From positions 1 to 64,000 of the IMG/VR virus record IMGVR_UViG_3300029951_000013: a stretch of DNA of 64,000 nt, one strand, 5' to 3'. The DNA is from a virus. Numbering within the stretch: the stretch's first letter is position 1; the number at the start of each line of letters is the position of its first letter. The notes below the pieces were generated by a model, which worked only from the letters and a program-made list of their open reading frames with translations, was not told the origin of the DNA and did no database searches. This document shows, piece after piece, positions 2,579 to 21,452 of the stretch. The position numbers and the translations under genes were made by a program.

Positions 2579-2646
2579 GGCCGCCGCTCACGGCAGCGGG
2601 CCCGGGGAATCGGGTGCGGGGGTTCAACTCCCCTGACGGCCACGCA
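2579..2646 (+). ncRNA. tRNA-like element (acceptor stem plus T-arm, no canonical anticodon arm)
   Basis: GGCCGCC/GACGGCC stem with one mismatch; GGGGG-TTCAACT-CCCCT T-arm; ends A-CGCA. Confidence 0.5.
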
Positions 2647-2829
2647 GCACCGCACTGCCAGACGTGCGCAGGTCGAACGCGAAGCGGACGGCACTCACCT
2701 CCAGCAGTGCGATGCTCGAACCGGCAGCTGACCGGCAGACGGCCCGCCACGACGAGGGGCGTCCGGTCGATCGGCTGCCGGAGCCCGCCAACCGACAACG
2801 GAGCACCCCAGCCACCGATCAAAGGACCA

Positions 2830-3405
2830 ATGACCATGACCGAGACGTACAGCCCCAGCGCCGCCGACGCGGTCGCCGCAGCGTTCCTCACGCGCGGCAA
2901 GACCGTCAGCGCGCAGTTCCCCCGGGTCGGCCACACGGTCGAGGGCACCATCACGGACTTCCGGATGAGCCTCCAGACCGACATGAAGACCGGCGACCAG
3001 ATGTACTGGGTCGGCAAGAGCCCCACCAAGGCGTCCGAGACCCCCGACAAGAAGGGCACCGGCCTGCGGCCGGTCGAGCAGCTCCTGATCGACATGCAGT
3101 GTGTGCCGACCGGAGTCAAGTGGGAGGGCCTGGAGTACGAGGAGGTCCACATCGAGGAGGACGACGGCATGCGCACTCTGTACGTGAAGGGTGCCGTCCA
3201 GGCCGCCGTCGCCAAGGCGATCAAGGACTCCGGCGGCGCTCTGGAACGCGGTGCCTACCTCAAGGTGACCCGGGGTCCGAACGGCAAGAACGAGCGCGGC
3301 GAGCGCAAGTTCTCCTACACCGCTGAGTACACCCCGGCGGCGAAGAACCCGAAGGCGGCCGAGCAGTTCCTGTCCGCCGCCGGCGACGACAACCCGTTCG
3401 CGTAG
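2830..3405 (+). CDS. Single-stranded DNA-binding protein (actinophage type)
   Basis: AAAGGA RBS before ATG 2830; beta-rich body; acidic/aromatic tail DDNPFA; follows the exonuclease. Confidence 0.65.
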   Translation: MTMTETYSPSAADAVAAAFLTRGKTVSAQFPRVGHTVEGTITDFRMSLQTDMKTGDQMYWVGKSPTKASETPDKKGTGLRPVEQLLIDMQCVPTGVKWEGLEYEEVHIEEDDGMRTLYVKGAVQAAVAKAIKDSGGALERGAYLKVTRGPNGKNERGERKFSYTAEYTPAAKNPKAAEQFLSAAGDDNPFA

Positions 3406-3446
3406 CGGCCGGCCCTGCGGCAGCGTCCTCCTTTTCAAGGAGTCAC

Positions 3447-3477
3447 TGTTTGCATAAATCGCCCCGACCCCTACCAT
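3447..3477 (+). promoter_or_regulatory. Putative promoter (TTTGCA-17-TACCAT) overlapping operator-like TGTTTGCATAAATC
   Basis: Shares TTTRNNTAAATCGC with the sites at 2456 and 6329. Confidence 0.5.
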
Positions 3478-3642
3478 GACAACAGGCGGGAGACCGCTGG
3501 AACCGTGGACGTGACCGACCGGACTCCATTGCCGGTGGGTCCGCAGAAGCCCCGTCACGGACTCCATCCCCCGGAGTCCCGTGGCGGGGCTGTCTTATGA
3601 TGATCAGGAAAGACCACCGACCAAGTTAGGGAGTTGAACGGC

Positions 3643-4101
3643 ATGGCGACTGTTGTATGGCCTACCGGGGACCAGGCCGGTGGGCGGGGTGACTGGATCT
3701 TTGTCGATCTCAGCGGTCGGCTCACCAAAGTGGCCGGCAGGTTCCTGGGGTTCGGCACCTCGTACAAGCCGGACCACATGTACCACAAGGGCCAGGAGTA
3801 CGCCGACAAGCGGCAGCGGTGCTCGCGCTGCCGCTGGATGGAGGTCAGGCTCTTCTCCGAGACCGGTTCCGGCCGCTACCTGCTGGTCACCCGGGGGGCC
3901 TCGGCGGTCCCCGGCGAGACCGAGCGGGTTACCTGCACTCTGGTGCACGGGCCGTTCCAGGCCGTGGAGGCGGCGACCACCCGGCGCGAGGAGCCCGGCG
4001 CCGAGCCGTTCCTGATCAAGCCCGCCGCCATGGCGCTCGCGCAGGCGGCGCAGTACGACGACGCTCTCAAAGAGGCCTATGTCAACCGCGCCGTAGCGTG
4101 A
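3643..4101 (+). CDS. Hypothetical protein with CxxC
   Basis: GGGAG RBS and upstream GACCACCGACCA motif; CSRC. Confidence 0.6.
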   Translation: MATVVWPTGDQAGGRGDWIFVDLSGRLTKVAGRFLGFGTSYKPDHMYHKGQEYADKRQRCSRCRWMEVRLFSETGSGRYLLVTRGASAVPGETERVTCTLVHGPFQAVEAATTRREEPGAEPFLIKPAAMALAQAAQYDDALKEAYVNRAVA

Positions 4102-4126
4102 GACCCAGCGGATACCGGAGCACACG

Positions 4127-4843
4127 ATGACGACCACAGACGAGAGGCGGTCCCACGGGAGGCCCCGCCCCGAGGAGACCATCCAGCGCGACCAGGCGAT
4201 CCTGGACCGGCTCCGGCAGGAGGGGCCGCAGACCACGGGCCAGCTCGCTGAAGCCCTGAGCGTCAGGGAGTCCCTGGTGGACGTGGCGCTGGGGCGGCTG
4301 CACAGCGCACGGGAGGCCCACCGGCGCCGGGAGATCCACGACGGCTCGTTCCAGACCTTCTGGCACGCGGGCTGGGACGAGGACGCCCAGCCGCGCAAGC
4401 GCCCGCGCCCGCAGAGGGTCGGCCGGGACCAGGTCGTCCTGGACCGCCTCCAGGAGCACGGACCGCGCCGGGTGGACCGGCTCGCCCGCGAGCTGTCCAT
4501 GGAGGAGTCCCTGGTGGAACTCAGCCTGAAGCGGCTCAAGGCCGCGGGAAGGGCCCACTGGGTGATGGACGCGGACGACGATCCTGTCTGGACCGCCGGC
4601 AGGGAGGTCAAGCCGCGCGGCCGGCCGCGGTCCCCGGAGACCATCCGGCGCGACCGGGACGTCCTGGGCCAACTGGTCCAGGGTGGGCCGCAGACCAGGA
4701 ACCAGATCGCCGAGGCCCTGCGCACCAAGCAGTCCCTGGTGTACCTCTCCCTGGGGCGCCTGCGCGGCGACGGCGCGATCCGCAAGTGCGCTGGTGAGGG
4801 TGCTTTCACCATCTGGTCCGCAGACGGGACGTGCGACGGATGA
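4127..4843 (+). CDS. Protein of three tandem winged-HTH-like units, candidate regulator
   Basis: Three repeats of RPR..E/Q...RD..IL..L...GP.....LA..L...ESLV.L.L.RL. Confidence 0.7.
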   Translation: MTTTDERRSHGRPRPEETIQRDQAILDRLRQEGPQTTGQLAEALSVRESLVDVALGRLHSAREAHRRREIHDGSFQTFWHAGWDEDAQPRKRPRPQRVGRDQVVLDRLQEHGPRRVDRLARELSMEESLVELSLKRLKAAGRAHWVMDADDDPVWTAGREVKPRGRPRSPETIRRDRDVLGQLVQGGPQTRNQIAEALRTKQSLVYLSLGRLRGDGAIRKCAGEGAFTIWSADGTCDG

Positions 4844-5127
4844 CCGCGCCGACGCAGGCCGACTGCACGGCCCTCCTCCAGAACGGCGGCCGGAGACTGC
4901 ACACCGGCCTCTGGGAGATCGGCAGCTACGCCTATACCGAGGCGGACGCGCTGGCGCTGGCCGAGCTGTGCCTCCGGCTGGGCCAGCCGCTGTCGGCGGC
5001 GATCACCGCACGGATGTTCCTCGCCGTCGTGCGCCGCCTCGACGCGGTGGAGGCGGCGCTGCCGTCGCAGGTCCCACCGGATCACTGGGGGCCGGCACCG
5101 GACCCGTCGTGTGATCGGAGCCACTGA
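4840..5127 (+). CDS. Hypothetical protein
   Basis: Start and stop overlap both neighbouring genes. Confidence 0.5.
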   Translation: MTAPTQADCTALLQNGGRRLHTGLWEIGSYAYTEADALALAELCLRLGQPLSAAITARMFLAVVRRLDAVEAALPSQVPPDHWGPAPDPSCDRSH

Positions 5128-5774
5128 TGGGCCAGCACCGGACCAACCGCACTCCCCCTCTGACCGTGAGCGTCGCGATACCCACGATCCCCGGGCGCGA
5201 GGCGCTGCTCCGCCGGGCGGTCGCCTCGGTCCACGCCCAGGAGCGCCAGGCCGACGCCATCCTGGTCGAGCGGGACGCCGGGCGCACCGGTGCCGCGCAG
5301 GCCCGGAACCGTCTGCTGGAGCGGTGCACCACCGATGTGGTCGCGTGGCTGGACGACGACGACCTCCTGCGGCCGAACCACCTCAAGGCCTGCCTGAGGG
5401 TCCTGACCAGCAGCCCTGGGACGGACCTCGTCTATCCGAGGCCCAGAATGTCCGGCGGCCAGGACCCCACCGCGACCACCTACCGCGGCCGGTTCCCGGT
5501 CGAGCCCTGGGGCATCCGCTGGCAGCCCGAGCTGGAGCGGCACCTGCGCACCCACGGCTCCTTCATCCCCATGACGCACCTGGTGCGCACCGACGCCGTC
5601 CGCAAGGCAGGCGGCTTCCCCGAGGGCCGCACCCTGCCGACCGGCCGCTACCAGGGAGAGGACGAGCGGTACCTGATCGCGCTGCTGGACACCGGTGCCC
5701 GGTTCGGACACCTGGATGCGGTGACATGGACCTGGACGGTCAACCCGGACAGCACCGCCGGGAGGCCCGCGTGA
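5127..5774 (+). CDS. Glycosyltransferase family 2 (GT-A)
   Basis: VSVAIPTI, ARNR, WLDDDD and EDE motifs. Confidence 0.85.
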   Translation: MGQHRTNRTPPLTVSVAIPTIPGREALLRRAVASVHAQERQADAILVERDAGRTGAAQARNRLLERCTTDVVAWLDDDDLLRPNHLKACLRVLTSSPGTDLVYPRPRMSGGQDPTATTYRGRFPVEPWGIRWQPELERHLRTHGSFIPMTHLVRTDAVRKAGGFPEGRTLPTGRYQGEDERYLIALLDTGARFGHLDAVTWTWTVNPDSTAGRPA

Positions 5775-6223
5775 ATGCCGCCGTCCGGTTCGCTGCCGCA
5801 TACGCCGCTCTCACCGCCTCGCACAAATTTGCGGATCACTGGATCCAGGTCGACGCGCAGGCCACCGCCAAGGGCGACCCCGGCACAGCAGGGCGTCTTG
5901 CGTGCGCGTCCCATATCGCCACGTACACCGTGACGCAGGGTCTCGCACTGCTGGCTGCCGACAGACTGCTCGGCCTACGTCTCAGCCCGGGACGTACTGC
6001 CGCCGCGCTGGCCGTCTCAGCCGGGACGCACTATGCGGCAGACCGTCAGGCGGGACACTGGCGGGACGAGGCACCACGCGGGGTTGCCCGCCTCGCCACA
6101 GCCACCGGGCACGCGAGCTGGCTCCAACGGGACCCGAATTCCCCCTACCTGCTCGACCAGGCATGGCACGAAGGATGGATCTTCATTGCCGCTCTGGTTG
6201 CAGCAGGACGCGGGACAGGCTGA
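5771..6223 (+). CDS. DUF3307-like membrane protein
   Basis: H..ADHWIQ...K, H...Y, THY..D and DQAWH motifs; GTG overlaps the upstream stop. Confidence 0.7.
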   Translation: MNAAVRFAAAYAALTASHKFADHWIQVDAQATAKGDPGTAGRLACASHIATYTVTQGLALLAADRLLGLRLSPGRTAAALAVSAGTHYAADRQAGHWRDEAPRGVARLATATGHASWLQRDPNSPYLLDQAWHEGWIFIAALVAAGRGTG

Positions 6224-6326
6224 GACGCTGGACTGAGACACCGTGGGACAGGGCCGGGACGCGCAACGCGTCCCGGCCTTCAATGCGTCCCGGGACTCGC
6301 TGGACACGGCGTCTCAGTTGGTCTAG

Positions 6327-6340
6327 GATTTAACTAAATC
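6327..6340. promoter_or_regulatory. Palindromic operator candidate GATTTA-AC-TAAATC, upstream of a TACGAT -10
   Basis: Perfect 6-2-6 inverted repeat in an AT-rich intergenic patch. Confidence 0.6.
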
Positions 6341-6372
6341 GCTTAGTTACGATCACGGACCAGGAGGACCCC

Positions 6373-8069: not shown

Positions 8070-8107
8070 GACGCACTCGACCATCTGACCAGAGAGCAGG
8101 CCGACCA

Positions 8108-8539
8108 ATGACCACGCCGTCCATGACCAAGAACGCCGCTCCGCAACAGCAGGGCAACACCGGCTCCAGCCGTCTCAACGCGCTGATCCAGGCGCTGGAG
8201 ACGGTGCAGATCGAGAACCAGTACGACCTGCACGAGTTCTGCGAGGCGCTGCGGGGCCTGGGCCACAGGCTCGCGGTGGAGACCATGATGGGCTCCCACG
8301 AGCTGGAGGCCGGGCTCAAGGAGCAGGCCAAGGCGGACGCCACTCTCGGTATCCCGGGCTTCGACTCGCGCCGGGCCATCCGGGGCACGATCCGCCAGTT
8401 CAAGTCCTGTGCGGACCACTTCGCCTCGGCGGCCGGGTGCGCCGCCGCCGGCTGGACCTCCTTCGAGAAGAACTTCGACCAGGCCCTGTCCCGCAAGCCG
8501 AAGGCCGCCAAGCGCGGCGGCTTCAAGATCGAGGGGTGA
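8108..8539 (+). CDS. TraA-like plasmid transfer protein (putative)
   Basis: Small helical ORF directly upstream of traB, as in Streptomyces plasmids. Confidence 0.45.
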   Translation: MTTPSMTKNAAPQQQGNTGSSRLNALIQALETVQIENQYDLHEFCEALRGLGHRLAVETMMGSHELEAGLKEQAKADATLGIPGFDSRRAIRGTIRQFKSCADHFASAAGCAAAGWTSFEKNFDQALSRKPKAAKRGGFKIEG

Positions 8540-8548
8540 GGTGCGGAC

Positions 8549-11155: not shown

Positions 11156-11662
11156 GTGACCACTGACCAGAACGCCGACCGCCTCCCGGTACGCACTGCC
11201 GACCCCGGCCCGCTGGCGCAGTTCGACCGGCGCGGCTTCCCGCTCCTGCCGCTGCCGGAGCCCGACGGGGTTATGAACGGCACCGGCCCGGAGCAGCACG
11301 TCCACATCCACCACCACTACGCCTCCGAGGCTCTGACACAGCAGCCGGTCCGATCGGACGACCAAGCGGGCTGGCTGCTGCTCAACCGGATGGCGCCGTA
11401 CTTCATCGCCGCCGCCCTGGTGGTCTTCCTCGTCGGCGGCGTCATCGCGGTTCTGGCCTACGTCTTCACCTTCGTCATGGCCGTGCTGGTCGTCCTGATT
11501 CACAGCCTGGTCGCTGTCACGGTCACCGCGGTCGTCGCCCTGGGCGGGGTCGCGCTGCTGGCCGGGGTCCTGCGGCCCCTGTTCACCGGCCCGAGCATTA
11601 CCGTGCAGGGGAGCAGGAACCGGGTCGACTCGGCCCCCCTGTCCCGGAACGGAGCGAAGTGA
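11156..11662 (+). CDS. Membrane protein (Spd-like)
   Basis: AAAGGA RBS; HVHIHHHY then a long hydrophobic stretch. Confidence 0.6.
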   Translation: MTTDQNADRLPVRTADPGPLAQFDRRGFPLLPLPEPDGVMNGTGPEQHVHIHHHYASEALTQQPVRSDDQAGWLLLNRMAPYFIAAALVVFLVGGVIAVLAYVFTFVMAVLVVLIHSLVAVTVTAVVALGGVALLAGVLRPLFTGPSITVQGSRNRVDSAPLSRNGAK

Positions 11663-12962: not shown

Positions 12963-13065
12963 GGACGCTTATCTTCCGCTGGTTCGTCTGCCCGCTGATC
13001 GGCCACGGCCCGGTGATCGACCCGTTCGCCTCGTCCACCTGCCGGGACTGCCTCAGGAGGTTCAG

Positions 13066-13992
13066 ATGAAGGCCCTGGTCTTGGGCGACAAGGGGTTCCT
13101 CGGCCGCCACTTCGCCGCCGAGCTGGAGCGGTGCGGCTACGACGTCGTCGGCCTGGACACCAAGCGCAGCCCGGCGCAGGACTGCCGGCCCTGGTTCAAC
13201 TCCAGTGCGGCGGCACGGGCCGGGTACTTCGACCTGGTCGTCCACGCGGCGGCGGTCGTCGGCGGCCGGGCGAAGATCGACGGTACTCCGCTGGCCACGG
13301 CGGTGAACCTGAGCATCGACGCCGAGATGTTCCGATGGGCAAGCCTCGCGCGGCCGGGCCGGGTGGTCTACTTCTCCTCTTCGGCCGCCTACCCGGTCGA
13401 CTATCAGACTGAGCACGGCCACAAGCTGCTGTACGAGCACGCGCTGAACACCAGGGACCATCCGGAGTACACCGTCGGGTACCCGGACCAGGTGTACGGC
13501 TGGACCAAGGTCGTCGGCGAAGTGCTGGCCGGGAAGCTGCGCGAGGCTGGTGTCCCGGTCACCGTGGTCCGGCCGTTCTCCGGCTACGGCACCGACCAGG
13601 ACGACGACTACCCGTTCCCGTCGTTCATCCGACGGGCGCGCGAACGGGGCCGGGCCGACGGCGGAGTGTTCCGGATCTGGGGCGACGGCGGGCAGGTGCG
13701 CGACTTCATCCACGTGGACGACATCGTGGCCCGGACGCTGGCGGTAGCCGAGGACGGCGCGGCGGAGCCGGTCAACCTGTGCACTGGGCGGGCGGTCAGC
13801 TTCAACCAGCTGGCCCTGGTCGTCTGCCAGGAGGCCGGCTGGGACGACCCGGAGTACACACACCTGCTGGACGCGCCGGTCGGAGTCCGGTACCGGGTGG
13901 GCGACCCGTCCCGGATGCGGCGGCTGACGGGCGACTCCCCGTTGATCAGTCTGGAGACTGGCATACGCCGGGCGCTGGACGCCAGCTCCTGA
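13066..13992 (+). CDS. NAD-dependent nucleotide-sugar epimerase/dehydratase
   Basis: GDKGFLG, SSSAAY, YGWTK, IWGDG.QVRDFIHVDD; AGGAGG RBS. Confidence 0.9.
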   Translation: MKALVLGDKGFLGRHFAAELERCGYDVVGLDTKRSPAQDCRPWFNSSAAARAGYFDLVVHAAAVVGGRAKIDGTPLATAVNLSIDAEMFRWASLARPGRVVYFSSSAAYPVDYQTEHGHKLLYEHALNTRDHPEYTVGYPDQVYGWTKVVGEVLAGKLREAGVPVTVVRPFSGYGTDQDDDYPFPSFIRRARERGRADGGVFRIWGDGGQVRDFIHVDDIVARTLAVAEDGAAEPVNLCTGRAVSFNQLALVVCQEAGWDDPEYTHLLDAPVGVRYRVGDPSRMRRLTGDSPLISLETGIRRALDASS

Positions 13993-14004
13993 ACGCCGCT
14001 CTAT

Positions 14005-14037
14005 CGAACCCCCGACCCCTCCTGGGCCGGGGGTTCG
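14005..14037 (+). terminator. Stem-loop terminator candidate
   Basis: CGAACCCCCG...CGGGGGTTCG just after the epimerase stop. Confidence 0.55.
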
Positions 14038-14144
14038 CGCATGCCTTGACACCGCATCGAATTCCGAGCAGGCCCGGCGGAGAATCGTCCCGATAGAGTC
14101 TCTTCGCCCGGAAGCCTAAAGAATCTTGATATATCCCTATCGTT

Positions 14145-14217
14145 GCAGCTCAGAGCGTTGCAGTTGGGTTGACGGCTTCATTGGGTCATGAGATAGTTAA
14201 ATCAAGCAAGAGAGAAC
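14145..14217 (+). promoter_or_regulatory. Strong sigma70/HrdB-type promoter, copy 1 of a 73-bp direct repeat
   Basis: TTGACG(14169)-17-GATAGT(14192); 72/73 identical to 17299-17371. Confidence 0.8.
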
Positions 14218-14246
14218 AAAACGAACACCGACCAAAGGAGAGCCCG

Positions 14247-14768
14247 ATGAGCACTTACGAGATCACTGTCAACTACACGTTCGACAGCGCTTCCAAGACC
14301 GTCGTGTACGCGACCAACGCCGAGAGCATCAACGAGGCCGAGCAGAAGATCTCCGCAGACTTCACCCGCACGCACATCGCCGGAATCGAGTTCACGACCT
14401 CCTCCCGCTTCATGCCCGAGTTCGCCGCAGTCCCCAGTACTGCCCGTCAGATCGAGTCCGGGATGCGCATCGACCTGACCGGGACCGACTCCGCCTCCCC
14501 CGCGCGTGACTCCGGGATCGACCGTCGCATCGTCCGCAGTGTGCGACAGGGACGCAAGTACACCTATCTGACTCTCGCGAACTACTCGATCGTGCGTCTG
14601 CTGCTCGACGCCCCCGTGAACACTCTGATCGAGACCCAGTTCTGCTCCGAGTGCACCGCAGAGCTTCCCGTCACCGAGATGACCCACGACGACGAGAACG
14701 ACCTGTACTTCTGCGCCGCTCCCGACAACGACCGCCCGTTCTGCGCTGACCTTCCTGCGAGCGTCTGA
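14247..14768 (+). CDS. Hypothetical early protein (SH3-like segment and C-terminal Cys cluster)
   Basis: AAAGGAG RBS; first gene after the promoter. Confidence 0.7.
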   Translation: MSTYEITVNYTFDSASKTVVYATNAESINEAEQKISADFTRTHIAGIEFTTSSRFMPEFAAVPSTARQIESGMRIDLTGTDSASPARDSGIDRRIVRSVRQGRKYTYLTLANYSIVRLLLDAPVNTLIETQFCSECTAELPVTEMTHDDENDLYFCAAPDNDRPFCADLPASV

Positions 14769-14779
14769 CCCGCACACAG

Positions 14780-15080
14780 CCCCGCGTCGTGAACCCGACG
14801 TAGCCGCGAAAGCAGCGCGAGGCACTTGATCAACAGCCAGAAAGAAAGTCGCCGGCGACAGAGAGCCGGACATCGCAGAGATAAGGCCCCCGAAAAGGCT
14901 AAGGCTGCGAGGGACGGGAGAGCCGGCGAACCCGGTAGGCGTCCATGAAGAACAGCGCGACCGGCCGACGACGTAGCGAGCGTCCGCCGAGGGAGACCAG
15001 CAACCTCCTGAACCACCGTTGCACGACCTGCGACAGACTCCCGCCCGAGGCGTATCGAGCCCGGCGGTTCCGAGTGTCGC
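14780..15080 (+). ncRNA. Putative large multi-branched structured RNA
   Basis: Many nested stems with purine-rich loops; no RBS-led ORF. Confidence 0.5.
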
Positions 15081-15089
15081 CCGCACCAA

Positions 15090-15141
15090 GCCCCTGGACA
15101 CGCCGCGAGGGTGCCCGATCGAATCGAGCCCGGGGCACGCA
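15090..15141 (+). ncRNA. Minimal tRNA-like element
   Basis: GCCCCTG/CCGGGGC stem; GCCCG-ATCGAAT-CGAGC T-arm; ends A-CGCA. Confidence 0.4.
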
Positions 15142-15170
15142 CCGACCGACCACTGACCAAGGAGCAGACC

Positions 15171-15344
15171 ATGAAGGCACGCAAGGGGTGGAAGGCGATC
15201 GACAGCACCGGGACCAGCGGGTTCGGCGACTGCCCGAAGTGGGCTGAGGTGTGCCGCAGGGGCGGCATGACCGTGGTCCCGGTCCGGATCTACGGCAAGG
15301 GCGCGTGGCCCTGCGGATCCTGCCTCTACGGCCTCGTCCACTGA
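15171..15344 (+). CDS. Small Cys-containing hypothetical protein
   Basis: Start-associated motif plus AAGGAG RBS. Confidence 0.65.
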   Translation: MKARKGWKAIDSTGTSGFGDCPKWAEVCRRGGMTVVPVRIYGKGAWPCGSCLYGLVH

Positions 15345-15348
15345 ACCG

Positions 15349-15558
15349 GTGAGCTACCCCGGCATGTTCGACGCCTCGTCCCGGACCGTGCGCGAGGTCC
15401 GGCCCGGGATGCACGTCGACCTTCCCCGCCTCGGCCGCGTCCGCATCGCTGACGTGGACCACCGGCGCAGCCGCAGTGCCTCCTACCTCACGCTGGCGAA
15501 CGGCGAGACTGTCCGTCTCGCGTCCAGCCGCCGCGTTACCGTTCTGTCCGACCACTGA
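15349..15558 (+). CDS. Small SH3-like hypothetical protein
   Basis: Shares GM..DL...YLTLAN...VRL with 14247-14768. Confidence 0.55.
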   Translation: MSYPGMFDASSRTVREVRPGMHVDLPRLGRVRIADVDHRRSRSASYLTLANGETVRLASSRRVTVLSDH

Positions 15559-15598
15559 CCCGCCCCGCCTTTGCACGTCCTCGACCAAGGAGCAGTCC

Positions 15599-15946
15599 AT
15601 GCGTATCACCCAGAGCCTCGTCCGAGAGATCGCCGACCACGCCGAGAAGTTCACCGGTGGCCGGTTCCGGATGCAGGCCATCGGCGGCGACATCGGGTAC
15701 GGCACCCGCTACATCGACGGTGTCGAACAGCTGGTCTGGCTCGGCAAGCACGGCAGTCGCGAAGCCGCCGCCTACTACATCGGCGCGATGCTCGGCTGGG
15801 CCCGGGAGACCGGGACGATGATTCCCGACGACGTCCGCCGCCTGTGCCAGTCCGTCCAGGATGAGTACCGTCGTACGCCCTCCGCTGAGCGCGAGGAGGA
15901 GCGCGGACGCGAGACCGCCGGGTACAGGGCTCAGTCCCGCCGCTGA
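15599..15946 (+). CDS. Hypothetical protein
   Basis: CGACCAAGGAG RBS. Confidence 0.7.
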   Translation: MRITQSLVREIADHAEKFTGGRFRMQAIGGDIGYGTRYIDGVEQLVWLGKHGSREAAAYYIGAMLGWARETGTMIPDDVRRLCQSVQDEYRRTPSAEREEERGRETAGYRAQSRR

Positions 15947-16068
15947 CCGATCCAGCCGCCGCTCATCGACTGACCCAGGAGAACTGACCATGGCACAGAG
16001 CGCGCTAACCCGTTGTCAGTGCCCTCTGGCACCGTGAGACCGACGACCATCCGACCGAGGAGCACAGA

Positions 16069-16401
16069 ATGATCACTACCAGTTACGGCAGCTGGAACAA
16101 CCACACCCGCTACAACACGAGCCCGGGTGCGGACATCCTCGACGTCGTCAACGGCGGCGGCAGCGAGTGGGTGGAGCGCATGCAGGCCAGCGGTGCCCTC
16201 GACGCGGTCGAGACCGAGTGGCGCGCAGCCATCCAGGCCGCGCTGCCCGAGGGCGTCACGCTGATCGGGGACGAGTTCATCGGCCCGCACTCCTCCGACC
16301 CGGCGTACACCGAGGCGATCCGGGAGAGCGACTTCAAGGAGATCATCGACGGCATCGACCTGAACGCGATCATCGAGCGCCACGACGTCGACAACGCCTG
16401 A
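16069..16401 (+). CDS. Acidic hypothetical protein
   Basis: GAGGAG RBS; typical codon bias. Confidence 0.7.
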   Translation: MITTSYGSWNNHTRYNTSPGADILDVVNGGGSEWVERMQASGALDAVETEWRAAIQAALPEGVTLIGDEFIGPHSSDPAYTEAIRESDFKEIIDGIDLNAIIERHDVDNA

Positions 16402-16490
16402 CCGGCCAGTCCCGCGCCGTGCACTACGGCGTACGCAGCGAAGCAGCGCGGGGCACGCAAGATCCGACCACCGACCGGGGAGTACCGACC

Positions 16491-16718
16491 ATGCTGAATG
16501 TCGTCCAGGACACCCACTCGTACGACCCGTCCTCGAAGCACGCTTATTTCGAGGAAGCTGGCGTCACGTTCGAAGTCCGGTTCACCGTGGGCATTGGGTA
16601 CCCCGGCTCCGTTAAGGCGCTGCACCCCTACGAGCACCTCGGGATGATCGACTGGGGCGACGAAAGCCGTGCCCGAGAACTCGCACGCACCTACCTGGCT
16701 GCTCGCTCCACGCACTGA
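16491..16718 (+). CDS. Hypothetical protein
   Basis: Start-associated motif plus GGGGAG RBS. Confidence 0.6.
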   Translation: MLNVVQDTHSYDPSSKHAYFEEAGVTFEVRFTVGIGYPGSVKALHPYEHLGMIDWGDESRARELARTYLAARSTH

Positions 16719-16755
16719 CCTGTTCGACCCGACCACCGACCAAGGAGTATCGACC

Positions 16756-17211
16756 ATGCAGACCCAGATCACCGACGACCTGCTGACCAAGTCCGTCCGG
16801 GCCATCACCCTGCGCGCGCCGTGGTCCGACTTGACCGCGCTGCGCGTCAAGGGGATTGAGAACCGAAGCTGGAGCACCAACTACCGCGGCCTGGTCCTAC
16901 TGCACTCCGGGCTCGCGGTCGACCGCCTGGCGTTCCGTGAAGCGCACGTGACCGCAGCGCTGCCCGCCGGCTACGACCCCGCGGCCAACGCCGGACGCGT
17001 CCTCTCCCTGAACCAGCTGGTCGACGTACACAAGGACACGGGCTGCTGCCGCCCGTGGGGCGAGGCCGGCGCCTACCACTTCGTCTGGGGGGAGGTCGTC
17101 CCGCTGCCCCGGCCGGTGCGCACCCGGGGCTTCCAGCAGCTGTGGATCCCCAAGGCGGACCTGCTGCTGGGCATCGTCGCCGAGACCGAGCGCGCCCGGC
17201 GCACCGCCTGA
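16756..17211 (+). CDS. ASCH-domain protein
   Basis: AITLRAPW......KGIENRSWST.YRG.VLLH and RGFQQLW motifs. Confidence 0.85.
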   Translation: MQTQITDDLLTKSVRAITLRAPWSDLTALRVKGIENRSWSTNYRGLVLLHSGLAVDRLAFREAHVTAALPAGYDPAANAGRVLSLNQLVDVHKDTGCCRPWGEAGAYHFVWGEVVPLPRPVRTRGFQQLWIPKADLLLGIVAETERARRTA

Positions 17212-17231
17212 CGCCGCATCGACGGTGCAGT

Positions 17232-17267
17232 GCCCCGAGACCGCTCCGGTGGTTTCGGGGCTTTCTT
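17232..17267 (+). terminator. Intrinsic terminator
   Basis: GCCCCGAGACC...GGTTTCGGGGC followed by TTTCTT. Confidence 0.75.
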
Positions 17268-17298
17268 GCTTAAAGAATCATGGACTTTCTGTAAAGTA

Positions 17299-17371
17299 GC
17301 AGCTCAGAGCGTTGCAGTTGGATTGACGGCTTCATTGGGTCATGAGATAGTTAAATCAAGCAAGAGAGAAC
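17299..17371 (+). promoter_or_regulatory. Strong promoter, copy 2 of the 73-bp direct repeat
   Basis: TTGACG(17323)-17-GATAGT(17346). Confidence 0.8.
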
Positions 17372-17431
17372 GAACGCAAGACCCAGAGCGAACGGGAGGC
17401 ATCCGTGAATCGGGTGCTGAACGAAGCGCCA

Positions 17432-17454
17432 CTCCTTGAGAACTGAACAGCGCG
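17432..17454 (+). promoter_or_regulatory. rrn-leader boxA-like element
   Basis: CTCCTTGAGAACTGAACAGCG resembles, from memory, the actinobacterial rRNA leader motif TTCCTTGAGAACTCAACAGCG. Confidence 0.6.
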
Positions 17455-17563
17455 TCCTTCCTCACCGAAGCGACAAAGACCGGACGTAGCGAGCCGGTCA
17501 GTCCGAAGTAGGTCCCCGGGGCGCGTGAGCCTGCACAACCGACCACCGACCAAGGAGAACCGC

Positions 17564-17773
17564 ATGCCGAAGTTCCAGTACCAGCCGGAGACCACCGCGT
17601 ACTACGCCGACCGCGTCGCCAAGGAGCTGGCCGCCGGCCGGTTCGTGGAGACCACCTTCGACCCGGAGGACGGGAAGATCACCGGTCTGGTCGGAGTCGA
17701 TCCGCACACCCCGTTCGCCGACCAGATCACCGCGAAGGCCGAGCGCCGCGCCGACACGCGCGACGCCCGCTGA
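17564..17773 (+). CDS. Hypothetical protein
   Basis: Start-associated motif plus AAGGAG RBS. Confidence 0.65.
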   Translation: MPKFQYQPETTAYYADRVAKELAAGRFVETTFDPEDGKITGLVGVDPHTPFADQITAKAERRADTRDAR

Positions 17774-17787
17774 ACCACCCGCACAAC

Positions 17788-17863
17788 GCCCCCGCCAGAG
17801 TGATGACTCCTCAGGAGAACAGCGTCGGACTCCAGCCCGTTCGAGTCGGGCCGGGGGCACGCA
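17788..17863 (+). ncRNA. tRNA-like element with no recognisable anticodon arm
   Basis: Perfect GCCCCCG/CGGGGGC acceptor stem; GCCCG-TTCGAGT-CGGGC T-arm; 72 nt to the discriminator A, then CGCA. Confidence 0.6.
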
Positions 17864-17907
17864 GTACCGCACGACCGATCAACGACCACTGACCAGAAGG
17901 ACCCGCC

Positions 17908-18255
17908 ATGCAGATGACCCCGCGCACCGCGCGCGTCCACCGCGCCGCCGCCCTGCTGCGCGCCCGCCGCTTCACCGCGAGCCTGCGCAAGGGCCGCTCG
18001 CTCGCCACCCACGTGATCGCCGCCGGGGTGACCGACCCCAAGGCCGTCTCCGCCGTCGCGGGCGGACTGCGCTCCGCTGCCCAGCGCCTGGGCGTCGCCC
18101 CGGTCCGGACCGCGCGCACCCGCCGCACTGTCAGGGGCCGCAGCCGCCTGCGCCGCGTCCAGCACTTCACCGCCGCTCAGGTCGCCCGCCTCGCCGCCTC
18201 GTACAAGCCACGCAAGCCGGAGTACGTTGCGGCTGTCATCCTGCTCACCGCCTAG
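17908..18255 (+). CDS. Basic hypothetical protein
   Basis: Start-associated motif plus AAGGA RBS. Confidence 0.65.
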   Translation: MQMTPRTARVHRAAALLRARRFTASLRKGRSLATHVIAAGVTDPKAVSAVAGGLRSAAQRLGVAPVRTARTRRTVRGRSRLRRVQHFTAAQVARLAASYKPRKPEYVAAVILLTA

Positions 18256-18348
18256 GAGCCGACCGTGACCACCACCGACCTCACCACTCTGCCCGTTTCC
18301 AGCGGCCCGACCGCCCGCCCGCGCACCGCTCACCGCCAGGAGCCCCCG

Positions 18349-18504
18349 ATGCCCACCACCGTGACCGTAACGATCTCGCTCGCAGACCTCGAAGCTCTCC
18401 TGCTCGATCTGGAAACGGCTGGCCTGCCCAGCCTGACCACCGCCGACGGAACCGACCGCACCATCAAGGCCCTCACGAACGCCTGGAAGGAAGCGGTCCG
18501 ATGA
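18349..18504 (+). CDS. Small hypothetical protein
   Basis: AGGAG RBS; coupled to the next gene. Confidence 0.5.
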   Translation: MPTTVTVTISLADLEALLLDLETAGLPSLTTADGTDRTIKALTNAWKEAVR

Positions 18505-19133
18505 CGAAGCTCACCGCGCCTCAGCAGGCTGCGATGAAGAGGCTGAGCGAGAAGGGCGTCCTGCACGCGTACAACGGCGTCAGCCGCACCACGATCAAGC
18601 GGCTGGAGACCCTCGGCCTCGTCACCGTGACGTGGTCCGTGAACACCTGGACCAACTACCGCAGCCACCGATCACACTCACAATGCGACTGGACTGCCCG
18701 CCCCACCACCGACCCACCGCCTTTGTGGAATCGCCTGGAACCCGGTCACTACGTCCGTTACGCCAGCGATGGCGTCACCGTCCAGGCCCGCATCGTCCGC
18801 GAGCCCGAGCTGCGCGCCGGCGGCCTCCTCGGCCCGGACCGCTGGACCGCCTGGATCCTCCCGAGCCACGGCGGATGGAACGCCTCCCGGCCAGGCCTGC
18901 GCACCATCAAGGACGCGCAGGCCTGGATCGAGCAGTCACTCCCCGAGGCTGAGGCTGAGATCGCAGCCAAGCGCGCTGCTGGGCAACTGATCGAGCAGAT
19001 CGTCTGCGGTGACGGCGGCGACGAGATGGGCTGCGCCGACTGCGCCGTTGCCCCCAACGACTCCTGGCCCTACGGCTCGGATGTGTGCGGCGAGTGCTGG
19101 GACCGCGCCCTGGCCGAGCTGAAGGACACCTGA
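18501..19133 (+). CDS. Hypothetical protein with wHTH-like N-terminus and C-terminal CxxC pair
   Basis: LTAPQQAAMKRL...RTTIKRLETLGLV; CADC...CGEC. Confidence 0.6.
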   Translation: MTKLTAPQQAAMKRLSEKGVLHAYNGVSRTTIKRLETLGLVTVTWSVNTWTNYRSHRSHSQCDWTARPTTDPPPLWNRLEPGHYVRYASDGVTVQARIVREPELRAGGLLGPDRWTAWILPSHGGWNASRPGLRTIKDAQAWIEQSLPEAEAEIAAKRAAGQLIEQIVCGDGGDEMGCADCAVAPNDSWPYGSDVCGECWDRALAELKDT

Positions 19134-19381
19134 TGCCCGCCAAGCGCCGCACCCCGTACCAGATGACCCACGCACCCGTCCGGGTCTCCATGAACTTCTG
19201 CACCGGCACGGAGCTGGACAGCAGCAAGCGCTTCTGTGCCACCTGCGAGCGCCCTCTCAAGCGACGCGTCCCCCACCACCCCCGCATCAACGGCGCGTTC
19301 GGGTGGACCGCGCACTACAGGGACGGCAGCACACGAGAACTCGCACCCGGGGGCGTCCCCGACCTCGCGCGCCCCGCCTGA
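19133..19381 (+). CDS. Hypothetical protein with CxxC
   Basis: TGATG coupling. Confidence 0.5.
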   Translation: MPAKRRTPYQMTHAPVRVSMNFCTGTELDSSKRFCATCERPLKRRVPHHPRINGAFGWTAHYRDGSTRELAPGGVPDLARPA

Positions 19382-19435
19382 CCGCCGCCTAGCACACCCG
19401 CCCGCCCACCCGCCGCTCACCGATCGGACTCCGCC

Positions 19436-19699
19436 GTGAACACACCTCCGACCAACCAGCAGGCCGCCGAGGTCGAGCGCGCCCGCGTCTACACCCCTGC
19501 GGGTCGCATGGCGCACCTGCTGCGGCCGCTCGACTCCCCCAACTCCACCGTCCCGTCCCTGTGCGGGCGCTGGCCGGGCGCCGGGGACTTCTGGCTCGGC
19601 ACTGGCAGCCAGCGGGAGCGCGAAGAGGCCGCCAAGCGCCCCCTGTGCACGCAGTGCGAGCAGCGCGCCATGACCCCGACCCTCATCCGAGAGATCTGA
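19436..19699 (+). CDS. Small Zn-finger-like protein
   Basis: AH..SLCG...LCTQC. Confidence 0.55.
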   Translation: MNTPPTNQQAAEVERARVYTPAGRMAHLLRPLDSPNSTVPSLCGRWPGAGDFWLGTGSQREREEAAKRPLCTQCEQRAMTPTLIREI

Positions 19700-19755
19700 C
19701 ACCGACCGCCTAGTCCGCCCGCCCGCGCACCACCCCGACCCAGGAGACCACCACT

Positions 19756-20124
19756 ATGACCAGCCTGACCGAACTCGCCCTTGCCGCCTACGAAGAGAAC
19801 ACCCGCGTCCTCGACGAGCAGGCGGCCGTCTTCGACGCGGAAGCCGACGAGGCCACGATCAAGGACGCCACCGCCTACGCCCGGCGCATCCTCTGCGCCG
19901 ACATCGCCCTGGTCTTTGACGTCATCGACCCGCTCGACCCCGACGGCGTCGCAGCCGAGGCCAACTTCCCCGGGCGTCCGGGCTTCAGTATCCGCTTCAC
20001 CGCCGCCGACGAGACGGCCCTGTACCTGATCCGGCCCTGCGCGCACTGCGGCCACGTTCGCGAAGACCGGATCCGAAGCCTTCCTGGTCTCGGCGAACTG
20101 CTCGCTGAGGGCCCGACCCGCTGA
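19756..20124 (+). CDS. Hypothetical protein
   Basis: AGGAG RBS; CAHC. Confidence 0.65.
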   Translation: MTSLTELALAAYEENTRVLDEQAAVFDAEADEATIKDATAYARRILCADIALVFDVIDPLDPDGVAAEANFPGRPGFSIRFTAADETALYLIRPCAHCGHVREDRIRSLPGLGELLAEGPTR

Positions 20125-20205
20125 CCCCAGCCCGGCTGCCCGTCCCGCACGGGCAGTCTCCCCCGCTGTCTAGCCCCCGCCGCGCCACACCCACCGGAGA
20201 CCAGC

Positions 20206-20658
20206 ATGCCGATCCACCTCCCCGCCCCAGCCCACCAGGTTGGCGGCCCCGATGGCCAGGGCTGGAACCGGATCAATCTCGGCTCCTTCGCCAGTGACGA
20301 ATGCGCGCTCAGACCGCTCGACTACAGCCACTACCGCGAGTCCCAGGACACGCGACGATCCCACTACGGCGGCTACGACTCCTGCATCAGCGGCGGCAAA
20401 TGCGAGGGCTGCCCGGTCTTTGAGCGCCACGAAACCATGCGCGCCTTCACCGACCGCGTCCTCGTCCGGATCGACCGCAACGGCACCCCATGGCTCATGG
20501 ACCACCCGGAGAAGGGCTGGTCGTCCCTCGGCCTGCGATGGACATGGGGACGCCTCGCCGTCCTGACCGGCTGGTACCCGGCCGAGAAGTACTCCGATGA
20601 GCACGGCGACGGCTTCTGGCTCGACCGCGCCGACGACAATCCCGCTCCCTCGATCTGA
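20206..20658 (+). CDS. Hypothetical protein, Cys-containing
   Basis: GGAG RBS; typical codon bias. Confidence 0.6.
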   Translation: MPIHLPAPAHQVGGPDGQGWNRINLGSFASDECALRPLDYSHYRESQDTRRSHYGGYDSCISGGKCEGCPVFERHETMRAFTDRVLVRIDRNGTPWLMDHPEKGWSSLGLRWTWGRLAVLTGWYPAEKYSDEHGDGFWLDRADDNPAPSI

Positions 20659-20673
20659 CCGGGTCCGGCCTCT

Positions 20674-20856
20674 GTGACCGCACCGATAGCCGGCCTGCCG
20701 ACGGACCCGCACCGGGCGCACCTGCTCGACATGCGGCTCCGCTGGCAGGCCGACCACCACCAGCAGAACGGCCAGCGCTGCCTGGCCCAGTCCCTGCGCT
20801 TCCGGGCCGACACCGCCTGGAAGCGCTACCTCAAGACCGGGAGGTACCCCGCATGA
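20674..20856 (+). CDS. Small hypothetical protein
   Basis: Coupled to the next ORF (ATGA). Confidence 0.4.
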   Translation: MTAPIAGLPTDPHRAHLLDMRLRWQADHHQQNGQRCLAQSLRFRADTAWKRYLKTGRYPA

Positions 20857-21050
20857 ACAAGCTGGAGACCGAAGCCACCGAGACCGGATACTCCCACGGT
20901 CACGCTCACGCCAACTACGTGACCGCGTACGGCGGCGACCCGCACACTGAGCCCGACGTCCCGTCCCGGTTCGCGTCTGTGGCGACGTACTTCACCGCTG
21001 CCTACGAGGACGGCGTCCAGGCGTACCTGGACGAGGCTTACGACGACTGA
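20853..21050 (+). CDS. Small acidic hypothetical protein
   Basis: GGAGG RBS. Confidence 0.6.
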   Translation: MNKLETEATETGYSHGHAHANYVTAYGGDPHTEPDVPSRFASVATYFTAAYEDGVQAYLDEAYDD

Positions 21051-21063
21051 GGAGAGGTTTTTC

Positions 21064-21306
21064 ATGATCGAGACATTGACCCCGATCGACCGGTCCGACA
21101 TCCGTCCCGGTGACGTGATCCAAGGTGTCGTCAAGAGCAGCATTCGCAACCGGACTGTTCGGTTGCGCGTGGACCGCGAACCCTGGGCGGTCGGACCCAA
21201 CAACACCTGTGTCACCGACGGCCGCTCCATCGAAGCTCTGATCACATCCACGCTGCACCTGGTGGACGGCGACTTCGAGACTACAAAGCTTCACGTACTG
21301 GACTGA
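21064..21306 (+). CDS. Small hypothetical protein (SH3-like start)
   Basis: GAGGAGAGG RBS; DIRPGDVI. Confidence 0.6.
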   Translation: MIETLTPIDRSDIRPGDVIQGVVKSSIRNRTVRLRVDREPWAVGPNNTCVTDGRSIEALITSTLHLVDGDFETTKLHVLD

Positions 21307-21325
21307 CCGCACGACCTGATCCACA

Positions 21326-21414
21326 GGACCGGCCCCGACGCGTGGCGGAGGGGCACCCGGAGAGACGGCACCGTACTGCACGCCGCGAGCCGGGTTCGAA
21401 TCCCGGCCGGTCCC
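21326..21414 (+). ncRNA. tRNA-like element, non-canonical D and anticodon region
   Basis: Perfect GGACCGG/CCGGTCC acceptor stem; CCGGG-TTCGAAT-CCCGG T-arm. Confidence 0.6.
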
Positions 21415-21452
21415 CTCCGCACGACCCGACCACCGACCAGAAGGAACACCTC

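Follow-up and report, generated by a model that had tools for sequence, protein, structure and literature searches.

What could be the role of intergenic structures that resemble one half of a tRNA but are unable to decode? This question is raised by the early region of a Streptomyces-type actinobacterial phage or phage-plasmid, studied here in the 64,000-nucleotide stretch (the window) that makes up positions 1 to 64,000 of IMG/VR record IMGVR_UViG_3300029951_000013 and belongs to a genome of 88,895 bp. A sequence-only reading of this DNA had described a family of four elements, each with a 7-bp acceptor-like stem stacked on a 5-bp T-stem, as well as a fifth stem, and had proposed that they are processing signals or released decoys. 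In a tRNA, maturation enzymes recognize just this portion, the acceptor stem together with the T-arm beneath it. All coordinates and sequences given in that reading match those that we re-read, but only three of the four elements withstand closer scrutiny.

The element el1 (2579..2646, plus strand) is a 63-nt top-half mimic at 2579–2641 followed by A-CGCA. Its acceptor stem, GGCCGCC/GACGGCC, has one mismatch (C.A), and the first T-stem pair of its T-arm, GGGGG-TTCAACT-CCCCT, is G.T. Mismatches are absent from el3 (17788..17863, plus strand; element 17788–17858), a 71-nt cloverleaf-like mimic with acceptor GCCCCCG/CGGGGGC and T-arm GCCCG-TTCGAGT-CGGGC that is likewise followed by A-CGCA. They are also absent from el4 (21326..21414, plus strand; element 21326–21413), an 88-nt mimic followed by C-CTCC, in which the acceptor GGACCGG/CCGGTCC and the T-arm CCGGG-TTCGAAT-CCCGG (GGTTCGAATCC) enclose an unrelated middle of 57 nt. 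The three middles are mutually unrelated, and yet G53-C61, T54, T55, C56, R57, and A58 are found in all of them. The T-arm motif GGTTCRANYCC of known t-elements is matched by el1 (GGTTCAACTCC) and el4 (GGTTCGAATCC), whereas in el3 (CGTTCGAGTCG) the loop and the G53-C61 pair are retained and the GG/CC on either side is absent. The stacked arrangement thus stands for el3, el4, and, with its single acceptor mismatch, el1, whereas it fails for el2.

At least these three elements are genuine look-alikes of a tRNA top half and are not tRNAs. ARAGORN called no tRNA gene, an Rfam scan at gathering cut-offs gave no match, and the tRNA model RF00005 (family cut-off 29 bits) had no match in the window's genome (G000) at E<=10, while the control was detected in 14 of 14 genomes. 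The expectation that the elements would not score as ordinary tRNAs is therefore borne out. When short stretches were scanned against Rfam, el3 had no tRNA match and el4 matched only tRNA-Sec, at 12.5 bits. An anticodon arm with 5 bp and a 7-nt loop is absent (in the fold of el3, a 4-bp stem closes a 12-nt loop, and those of el1 and el4 contain unrelated hairpins), and no D-arm with GG in its loop occurs in any of the window's elements. The earlier observations that the elements have no canonical anticodon arm and no encoded CCA are confirmed. A tmRNA was likewise neither called by ARAGORN nor matched by Rfam. The mascRNA-menRNA model (RF01684) can be aligned with the acceptor and T-arm of el4, but the score of 16.8 bits is below the cut-off of 42.5, and thus el4 is not a member of that family.

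The first alternative to be weighed is that the elements are plain GC-rich intergenic hairpins that resemble a T-arm and acceptor by coincidence and act, for example, as mRNA stabilizers, attenuators, or U-less terminators. A strict scan of the whole genome for a TTCRANN loop on a perfect 5-bp stem, abutting a 7-bp stem with at most one mismatch, returned el1, el3, and el4 on the plus strand and nothing else, with no match on the minus strand. Among 204 TTCRA sites (82 on the plus and 122 on the minus strand), only these three have a perfect 5-bp stem, although by our estimate about two would be expected from composition. Shuffled genomes averaged 0.855 strict matches, and 12 of 200 had three or more, so that a count of three in the whole genome exceeds chance only slightly and is not significant alone. 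Folding energies also leave room for coincidence. The z-scores of el1, el2, el4, and el5 are unremarkable, the folds of el1 and el4 are no better than those of shuffles, and the cloverleaf of el4 (z −0.23) is not its minimum-free-energy fold. The minimum-free-energy fold of el3 is a four-arm cloverleaf (z −2.17), which 4 of 200 shuffles equaled. Furthermore, plain hairpins occupy many other intergenic gaps of the window, and in another plasmid group one follows the homologue of the gene 5′ of el5.

The significance of the three elements lies in their location rather than in their count. All three perfect T-arms fall in the early intergenic gaps of the plus strand, which account for no more than 6.1 kb of the 177.8-kb two-strand space (<=3.4%), and all three share the invariant T-loop positions listed above. 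No U-tract follows any element. An intrinsic terminator, meaning a hairpin with a T-run, was sought at the elements and rejected; the only canonical site of this kind on the plus strand of 13900–22100 is at 17232..17261. With the evidence from relatives described below, coincidental hairpins are an unlikely, though still credible, explanation.

The remaining two elements are simpler. The stems of el2 (15090..15141, plus strand; element 15090–15136) each carry a mismatch, one in the closing stem GCCCCTG/CCGGGGC and one in the T-like hairpin with its loop ATCGAAT, and the fold z-score is +0.19. Because of these mismatches, and because a scan at this stringency yields 79 plus-strand and 76 minus-strand matches genome-wide, el2 is a weak candidate at chance level, and the proposed family of four is reduced to el1, el3, and el4. 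The fifth element, el5 (16409..16459, plus strand; stem domain 16409–16454), is a plain stem without a T-arm, in which a 9-bp acceptor-like closing stem is followed by A-CGCA. This 3′ edge had been noted before, and it is indeed present at el1, el2, el3, and el5. The longer sequence GGGGCACGCA is found three times, only at the 3′ edges of el2, el5, and el3 and never on the minus strand, and none of 300 shuffles reached three copies.

The surroundings of the elements are consistent with a role in long transcripts. All are on the sense strand between genes, 8–19 nt 3′ of stop codons and 30–190 nt 5′ of starts; el5, for example, begins 8 nt past the stop codon at 16399–16401 and el3 begins 14 nt past the one at 17771–17773. 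It had been observed that most elements sit just before a start-associated motif, and GACCACYGACC does occur 7–26 nt 3′ of el2, el5, el3, and el4. The plus-strand copies are at 15148..15159 (GACCACTGACCA, followed by AGGAG and ATG at 15171), 16466..16477 (ATG at 16491), 17884..17895 (ATG at 17908), and 21428..21439 (ATG at 21453). Also, el4 is flanked on the plus strand by a 10-nt direct repeat, CCGCACGACC, at 21307..21316 and 21417..21426. A promoter-like site, TTGACG-17-GATAGT, at 14169..14197 (plus strand) would give a transcript that includes el2 and el5, and its second copy at 17323..17351 (plus strand) would give one that includes el3 and el4. The leader that holds el1, between an exonuclease-like gene and an SSB-like gene, is headed by an operator/promoter-like sequence, GGTTTAATTAAATC ... 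TATGCT, at 2454..2484 (plus strand), which was picked out by visual inspection and from its resemblance to GGTTTAATTAA..GGGTATCAT of the relatives. Judging from this map of predicted promoters and terminators, the elements appear to lie inside polycistronic early operons and not at operon ends.

Related genomes provide the most informative comparison. The exonuclease-to-SSB-like leader was compared in 14 distinct genomes, comprising the window and its Streptomyces phage-plasmid relatives. The two flanking genes are syntenic (44–49% amino acid identity each), and el1 occupies the same position as its counterparts, after the operator/promoter. A tRNA-like RNA is present in nine of the 14 leaders, a canonical tRNA-Asn(GTT) followed by G-CGCA in one (L056), and el1 in the window, whereas three leaders carry none of these, so the element is dispensable. 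That this leader contains clear tRNA-like RNAs in relatives, or in one case a real tRNA, argues against coincidental hairpins. The RNAs of the nine genomes have canonical acceptor, D-, and T-arms and a long variable arm. Their top half (acceptor, D-, and T-arms) averages 90.5% pairwise identity, compared with 50.2% for the middle, or anticodon arm, whose length ranges from 27 to 55 nt. Compensatory changes convert the D-stem from GCTC/GAGC to ACTC/GAGT and alter the first T-stem pair, which is C-G, U.G, A-U, or G.U. A conserved top half with a drifting anticodon arm is the pattern predicted if only the top half is functional.

The sequence-only reading had looked to covariation in relatives for support, and this was obtained in part. 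Compensatory pairs exist in the relatives' RNAs, but a covariance model (R1) built from the nine leader RNAs finds no match to el1 at E<=10 and scores only 14.8 bits (E 6.3) on el4. No variants were found inside the window's elements in four metagenome runs, which therefore provide no covariation for these copies, and none of the sequencing runs listed as containing this DNA is an RNA run. Kinship with the relatives' RNAs would accordingly be one of position and shape only; for el1 any homology appears to be positional, and flanking genes give no support for el3 and el4. The relatives also share the order of tRNA-like RNA, short spacer, start-associated motif, Shine-Dalgarno sequence, and ATG. 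Since all five relatives' records exceed the Rfam tRNA cut-off and the window's genome (0 of 1) does not, the window holds the most reduced forms.

Such a series, running from real tRNAs (L056 and G408) through tRNA-like RNAs with odd anticodon arms to the window's top halves, is also what would be expected if the elements were decaying pseudogenes, now functionless, left over from phage tRNA genes. The lack of any tRNA match in the window's genome and the unrelated middles of its three elements fit this explanation as well. Neutral decay, however, should strike all stems equally, and two of the three elements keep perfect 7+5-bp stacks and canonical T-loops around an unrecognizable interior, just as the top half in relatives retains its identity and its compensatory changes while the middle drifts. 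We consider pseudogenes to be quite improbable.

A second tRNA-like family in the relatives invites another explanation, in which the elements are released as trans-acting small RNAs, either as decoys or sponges for molecules that read the acceptor and T-arm (CCA-adding enzyme, acceptor-end-modifying toxins, or RNase P) or as regulators on a tRNA scaffold. This family is 94.4% paired and has three pairs altered on both sides, which also counts in favor of the processing reading given below, and a 14-nt loop, CCTTGGTCGGTTCC, is invariant in 7 of 7 copies. Like the leader family, it possesses a D-arm with a GG loop. The loop is complementary to the start motifs ACCGACCAAGG and GGAACCGACCA(TG), found ahead of many start codons in the same genomes, which makes it plausible that a tRNA-shaped RNA acts in trans in this clade. 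In the window, el1 has on its T-loop side 11 nt of complementarity to the Shine-Dalgarno region of gene 3643, but about 3% of random segments have as much, the interiors of el2–el5 show only background complementarity to start regions, and no RNA bears the anti-start-motif loop. Furthermore, CCA is not encoded, and the lack of an anticodon loop makes the elements unsuitable for deceiving anticodon nucleases. Overall, a trans-acting role for the window's elements seems doubtful. An equally speculative extension, to which we assign a low probability, is that tRNA genes may have evolved in this clade into tRNA-shaped riboregulators, whose scaffold (acceptor, T-arm, and in some cases D-arm) would be excised from early transcripts and kept stable by the host's tRNA machinery, with the former anticodon arm as payload. 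The relatives' 14-nt-loop RNA might then act as an antisense RNA that controls the translation of at least 12 genes per genome, and the window's top halves might be the minimal scaffold, released to compete for enzymes or defense toxins that read the acceptor and T-arm.

Given that relatives carry fuller tRNA-like versions at comparable places, the elements are probably cutting or stabilizing marks in long early transcripts rather than working tRNAs. Our preferred, though tentative, reading is more specific, and we give it somewhat less than an even chance: el1, el3, and el4 would be tRNA-derived modules resembling t-elements, at which RNase P together with RNase Z or RNase E punctuates early polycistrons. 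Host RNase P would cut the acceptor stem at its 5′ base, and a second cut directly 3′ of the discriminator (A|CGCA) would be made by RNase Z or else by RNase E, which would cleave ahead of the C. The two cuts would divide the polycistron. The upstream message would end near its own stop codon, a small RNA of 63–88 nt would be released or retained as an end-cap, and the downstream message would begin 25–50 nt 5′ of the start-associated motif, Shine-Dalgarno sequence, and AUG. The simpler stems el2 and el5, with their common edge GGGGC-A-CGCA, may use the 3′ cut alone. The earlier proposal of processing signals is partly supported, in that el1, el3, and el4 are real, lie inside predicted operons, and have counterparts in relatives with a conserved top half, but not as regards el2 or kinship as judged by R1. 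A point against this reading is that the specificity domain of RNase P reads the tRNA elbow, which is missing from the window's elements because they have no D-arm.

Known systems offer parallels of differing closeness. Phage tRNA genes are co-transcribed with mRNAs, as in the T4 tRNA cluster, and the canonical tRNAs of this clade (L056 and G408) share with the elements the early-leader position, the acceptor and T-arm, and the same maturation enzymes, which would also serve the mimics; the elements differ in lacking the anticodon arm, D-arm, and CCA. The mascRNA/MALAT1-type 3′ module is another acceptor and T-arm mimic, which RNase P and RNase Z excise from its long precursor, but it belongs to a eukaryotic nuclear RNA. 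Forner et al. (2007; PMC1920247) describe plant mitochondrial t-elements as tRNA-like structures next to mRNA ends, for which cleavage by RNase P and RNase Z has been proposed or demonstrated. These share with the window's elements a non-canonical cloverleaf, the conserved T-arm motif, and a position inside longer transcripts, and the 'acceptor-stem-like stem-loops' of the same source are comparable to el2 and el5. Unlike them, the window's elements come from an actinobacterial phage or phage-plasmid, are known from sequence alone, have no D-arm, and precede a phage-specific start-associated motif. In Haloferax volcanii, t-elements upstream of 5S rRNA, also used to release crRNAs, are experimentally proven (PMC4326828). 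There, too, a tRNA-like precursor structure lets RNase P and tRNase Z set the ends of a neighboring RNA, but that system is archaeal and flanks stable RNAs, whereas the window's elements flank mRNAs. The acceptance of tRNA-like t-elements elsewhere as RNase P and RNase Z signals for mRNA ends counts in favor of the processing reading.

The principle of RNA processing by tRNA enzymes already has precedents in mitochondria, in archaeal rRNA operons, and in MALAT1. A literature search of incomplete coverage returned no description of tRNA-like punctuation in the early operons of actinophages. Elements of this kind could be of practical use as compact, host-processed punctuation parts for engineering Streptomyces operons, and the anti-start-motif loop of the relatives would be the first candidate partner for start-associated sequences. 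The series within the clade, which comprises real tRNA, tRNA-like RNA whose anticodon arm is free, and the top half alone, would show which part is kept once decoding has been lost. If the preferred reading is true, this bacteriophage uses the tRNA-maturation enzymes of its host as its own mRNA-processing machinery.

Three short intergenic elements in the early region of this phage genome resemble the top half of a tRNA, in that an acceptor-like stem is stacked on a T-arm. All five sequences singled out by the sequence-only reading were located at their assigned positions, on the + strand (el1, 2579-2641; el2, 15090-15136; el5, 16409-16454; el3, 17788-17858; el4, 21326-21413). The strict scanner looked for a TTCRANN loop on a five-pair stem in which G-U counted as a pair. 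A 7-bp stem with at most one mismatch was also required, its 3' strand directly abutting the T-arm and its 5' strand lying 10-110 nt upstream. Across the whole genome it returned three distinct + strand sites, corresponding to el1, el3 and el4, and none on the - strand. Similarly, a perfect 5-bp stem surrounds TTCRA at only three of 204 genome sites (82 +, 122 -), which are these same elements. The 7+5-bp stack is perfect in el3 and el4, and el1 carries one C.A mismatch. The minimum-free-energy fold of el3 is a four-arm cloverleaf (z -2.17; 4 of 200 shuffles were as stable), that of el1 is a closed three-hairpin domain (z -1.32), and the tRNA-like fold of el4 differs from its minimum-free-energy structure (z -0.23). 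A family of four such mimics had been proposed; three members stand, and el2 does not, since it needs a mismatch in both stems, has the loop ATCGAAT and a fold z-score of +0.19, and a scan relaxed to its stringency gives 79 + and 76 - matches genome-wide, which is the level of chance. El5 has a 9-bp closing stem and no T-arm.

The elements are not ordinary tRNAs, as had been expected. ARAGORN reported no genes, and a tRNA model search of the whole genome gave nothing at E<=10, with the positive control detected in 14 of 14 genomes. There were no Rfam matches at gathering thresholds. Relaxed ARAGORN thresholds produced 278 and 327 'genes', which is noise, and Rfam searches limited to short stretches yielded nothing beyond miRNA, tRNA-Sec and mascRNA matches below threshold, which align to the T-arm and acceptor (mascRNA, 16.8 bits against a cut-off of 42.5). 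The lack of an anticodon arm and of an encoded CCA was borne out, and a D-arm is absent too. When the 3' halves of el3 and el4 (24 nt each) were compared with three Streptomyces genomes, tRNA genes included, nothing matched within three mismatches, and thus recent capture from a host tRNA is not shown. An exact scan of viral contigs with the el4 3' half was also negative.

Coincidental hairpins must be weighed as an explanation for these sites. Dinucleotide-shuffled genomes contain on average 0.855 complete matches (both strands), and 12 of 200 shuffles reach three; therefore, the number of sites alone is not significant. El1, el3 and el4 are all on the coding strand, in intervals that separate early genes. 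Such intervals total at most 6.1 kb versus 177.8 kb of two-strand space, and even this figure is too high, since some of them are probably coding. This placement is the part that chance does not explain, and coincidence is judged unlikely.

A common A-CGCA tail was confirmed after el1, el2, el3 and el5. The 10-mer GGGGCACGCA has three copies in the genome, solely at the 3' edges of el2, el5 and el3. The - strand has none, and three copies were reached in 0 of 300 shuffles; however, 3,069 other 10-mers are likewise present at least three times in this biased genome. The trailers of el1 and el3 (2642-2656 and 17859-17873) both read ACGCAG[C/T]ACCGCAC, and a 10-nt direct repeat, CCGCACGACC, flanks el4 (21307-21316 and 21417-21426). 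Such features could be either a second signal beside the stems or a trace of module spread, and the C/A-rich composition of the spacers raises the likelihood that the repeats arose by chance. No variants inside the elements were seen in four metagenome runs containing the phage, so population data yield no covariation. Among the 24 runs matching 14200-22000, all are peat-metagenome DNA and no RNA runs are listed.

The elements are embedded in what look like early transcription units. Between 13900 and 22100, a promoter-like TTGACG-17-GATAGT occurs on the + strand at 14169-14197 and again at 17323-17351, and the single canonical terminator-like site lies at 17232-17261 (+). Each promoter-like sequence, together with a TAAATC operator half, belongs to a near-identical repeat of ~85 nt (~14110-14215 and 17265-17370) that appears to be a duplicated early promoter cassette. 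The first predicted operon contains el2 and el5 and the second contains el3 and el4, whereas el1 lies within a 376-nt leader, downstream of the operator/promoter-like GGTTTAATTAAATC...TATGCT. Only 8-19 nt separate the preceding stop codon from el5, el3 and el4, and none of the elements is followed by a T-run. The right-arm spacers that were inspected have a coding appearance.

The start-associated motif (GACCACYGACC) had been noted close to the elements, and it does lie 7-26 nt 3' of el2, el5, el3 and el4. The usual place of the form GACCACYGACCA is just 5' of the Shine-Dalgarno sequence, but several genes have it directly 3' of the start codon, where it would encode M-T-T-D-Q (372, 11158 and 25240 in the window; 75266 (-) and 87854 in the genome; GTG at 11156, ATG at 87852). 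Because it is found on either side of the start codon, the motif seems to act at the RNA level.

The window covers the first 64 kb of an 88,895-bp virus record (~69% G+C) assembled from peat metagenomes, with genes on the + strand to ~26.8 kb and then virion genes on the - strand. Its capsid protein is less than 30% identical to that of any named phage, and searches of a phage collection returned no matches, near or distant, for the DNA and none for the SSB-like protein; a plasmid collection gave patchy gene matches only. The closest relatives are 88-99-kb Streptomyces contigs, IMG/VR records and one plasmid (pS1D4-14.2), which share a syntenic backbone with the window at 40-60% amino-acid identity. 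The Streptomyces phage-plasmid pZL12 is similar in size to this record. Peat runs X10, X12 and X14 also contain 93-96-kb contigs, and thus related phage-plasmids may co-occur with this phage. Single-protein scans of viral contigs gave L001 alone, in an unrelated context, from one scan and nothing from another, and three records from the plasmid collection (L002, L067 and L068) were set aside as lacking synteny and any such element.

The leader between the exonuclease-like and SSB-like genes was compared in 14 distinct genomes (the window, R1-R3, pS1D4-14.2, G404-G408, L053, L057, L059 and L060; L058 duplicates L052, and L051 duplicates R3). Nine of these carry a tRNA-like RNA of 82-110 nt, here called family (a), with the acceptor GCGCGG/CCGCGC, U8 A9, a canonical D-arm (GCTC-AACYGG..-GAGC), the T-arm CCGGG-TTCGAGA-CCCGG and discriminator A. 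Its anticodon arm is replaced by a long hairpin that varies in sequence and length among genomes. El1 occupies the leader of the window, and no such RNA is present in the leaders of L053, L057 and L060. The remaining leader, in the distant relative L056 (G408), contains a canonical tRNA-Asn(GTT) at 1345-1418 (64.7 bits) followed by G-CGCA, the same tail that follows the window's elements. When 401 Streptomyces genomes were sampled with the relatives' leader element, G001 was the sole real match, the other 23 being short and weak.

Functionless tRNA remnants are another candidate explanation, and the pattern of change in family (a) bears on it. Pairwise identity among the nine members is 90.5% in top-half columns and 50.2% in the middle, which ranges from 27 to 55 nt. 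In one member the D-stem reads ACTC/GAGT in place of GCTC/GAGC, the T-stem opens with C-G (n=4), U.G (n=2), A-U (n=1) or G.U (n=1), and the variable-arm outer stems keep pairing despite sequence differences. This is the pattern that selection for the acceptor, T-arm and elbow leaves once the decoding part is released, and decay without function is accordingly rated improbable. A conserved hairpin, CCGGAGCC-N8-10-GGCTCC, adjoins the 3' side of the family (a) RNA in the relatives' leaders (for example, L022 19857-19885) and begins two bases past the discriminator.

Two further families occur in the relatives. Family (b) is a tRNA-like RNA of ~97 nt in seven relatives (L065 1501-1597; L011 18786-18883 (-); L021 12748-12846; L014 9203-9299; L064 and L063 (-); L069 about 404-500) that scores as tRNA above the Rfam cut-off. 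A 7-9-bp stem replaces its anticodon arm, with 34 nt in place of the anticodon loop. On a hand-written structure, pairing is 94.4%, against 25-54% for slid controls, and three pairs are altered on both sides. The loop CCTTGGTCGGTTCC is invariant in all seven copies, and its complement, GGAACCGACCAAGG, is a composite of ACCGACCAAGG and GGAACCGACCA(TG), which sit just 5' of many start codons in R1-R3. In these three genomes, with contexts read by eye, matches of at least 9 nt to GGAACCGACCAAGG number roughly 14-19 sites per genome, and one R2 start region matches all 14 nt. The sequences point to family (b) as a putative antisense RNA on a tRNA scaffold, directed at the start-associated sequences of the clade. 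Family (c) (R1 52148-52220 (-); R3 13522-13592; L062, that is, G406) is called tRNA-Gly(CCC) in one genome, scores 49 bits with its loop read as CUC in a second, and has a 6-nt anticodon loop in a third; its T-loop, ATCGTGA, carries A at position 54 and T at position 58, a swap of the two. After families (b) and (c) come a short spacer, the start motif of the clade, a Shine-Dalgarno sequence and ATG, in the order also seen 3' of el3 and el4. In pS1D4-14.2, locus tags skip one number at both tRNA-like RNAs (L022 19520-19935, RS00755 to RS00745; L069 365-542, RS01225 to RS01215), so both may already be annotated in RefSeq as RNA genes; RNA genes are absent from the plasmid table used here.

Given family (b), the window's elements might likewise act in trans, as small RNAs or decoys. 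In the window, the target-like motif is present at some starts, and no anti-start-motif RNA was found, since all candidates proved to be the reverse strands of genuine start regions. Complementarity between element interiors and start regions is at background, except that the el1 T-loop side, GTTCAACTCCC (2622-2632), is complementary over 11 nt to the Shine-Dalgarno region GGGAGTTGAAC (3626-3636) of the gene starting at 3643, a length that ~3% of random 55-nt segments reach with some start region. A role in trans is therefore held to be rather improbable.

The structures themselves are secure, as is the comparative pattern. A covariance model from the nine leader RNAs did not find el1 at E<=10 and gave el4 14.8 bits (E 6.3); its match at 26446-26540 (-), at 17.2 bits, shows nothing tRNA-like on inspection by eye. 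The relatives lack homologues of the genes that surround el3 and el4, and the homologue of gene 17908, where present, has a terminator and promoter upstream and no tRNA-like RNA. The nearest homologues of the protein encoded at 17908-18255 are 65-68% identical to it. Thus, the link consists of position (el1 only), shape and arrangement, and homology to the relatives' RNAs is not demonstrable at the sequence level.

RNase P, RNase Z and the CCA-adding enzyme need no more as substrate than an acceptor stem stacked on a T-arm. In plant mitochondria (PMC1920247) and Haloferax (PMC4326828), tRNA-like t-elements are documented as signals for RNase P/Z cleavage at the ends of mRNA or rRNA. The plant study used the search motif GGTTCRANYCC, which also fits el1 and el4, and bare acceptor-like stem-loops, which el2 and el5 parallel, were proposed there as signals as well (PMC1920247). 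The minimal-substrate rule and these known t-elements are the reasons for choosing punctuation as the reading: the elements would mark early polycistrons for cutting by RNase P and by RNase Z or E, a proposal made tentatively and falling a little short of probable. Mycobacterial RNase E prefers cutting before C.

Processing signals of this tRNA-like kind are already known. What appears to be new is the setting in actinophage or phage-plasmid early operons, the gradation that runs from a tRNA to a bare top half, and the coupling to the start-associated motif; a literature search of incomplete coverage returned no account of these. We infer every enzymatic step of the punctuation reading. RNase P would cut at the first acceptor-stem base, and RNase Z or RNase E would cut past the discriminator (A|CGCA). 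A stem-loop at the 5' end is known to protect mRNA, and in the relatives a cut at the family (a) discriminator would leave the downstream message with the CCGGAGCC hairpin as its extreme 5' end. The tRNA-like piece may also remain attached to one of the products and shield its end. In the window, such cuts would split the early polycistrons, so that the next message would begin 25-50 nt 5' of its start motif.
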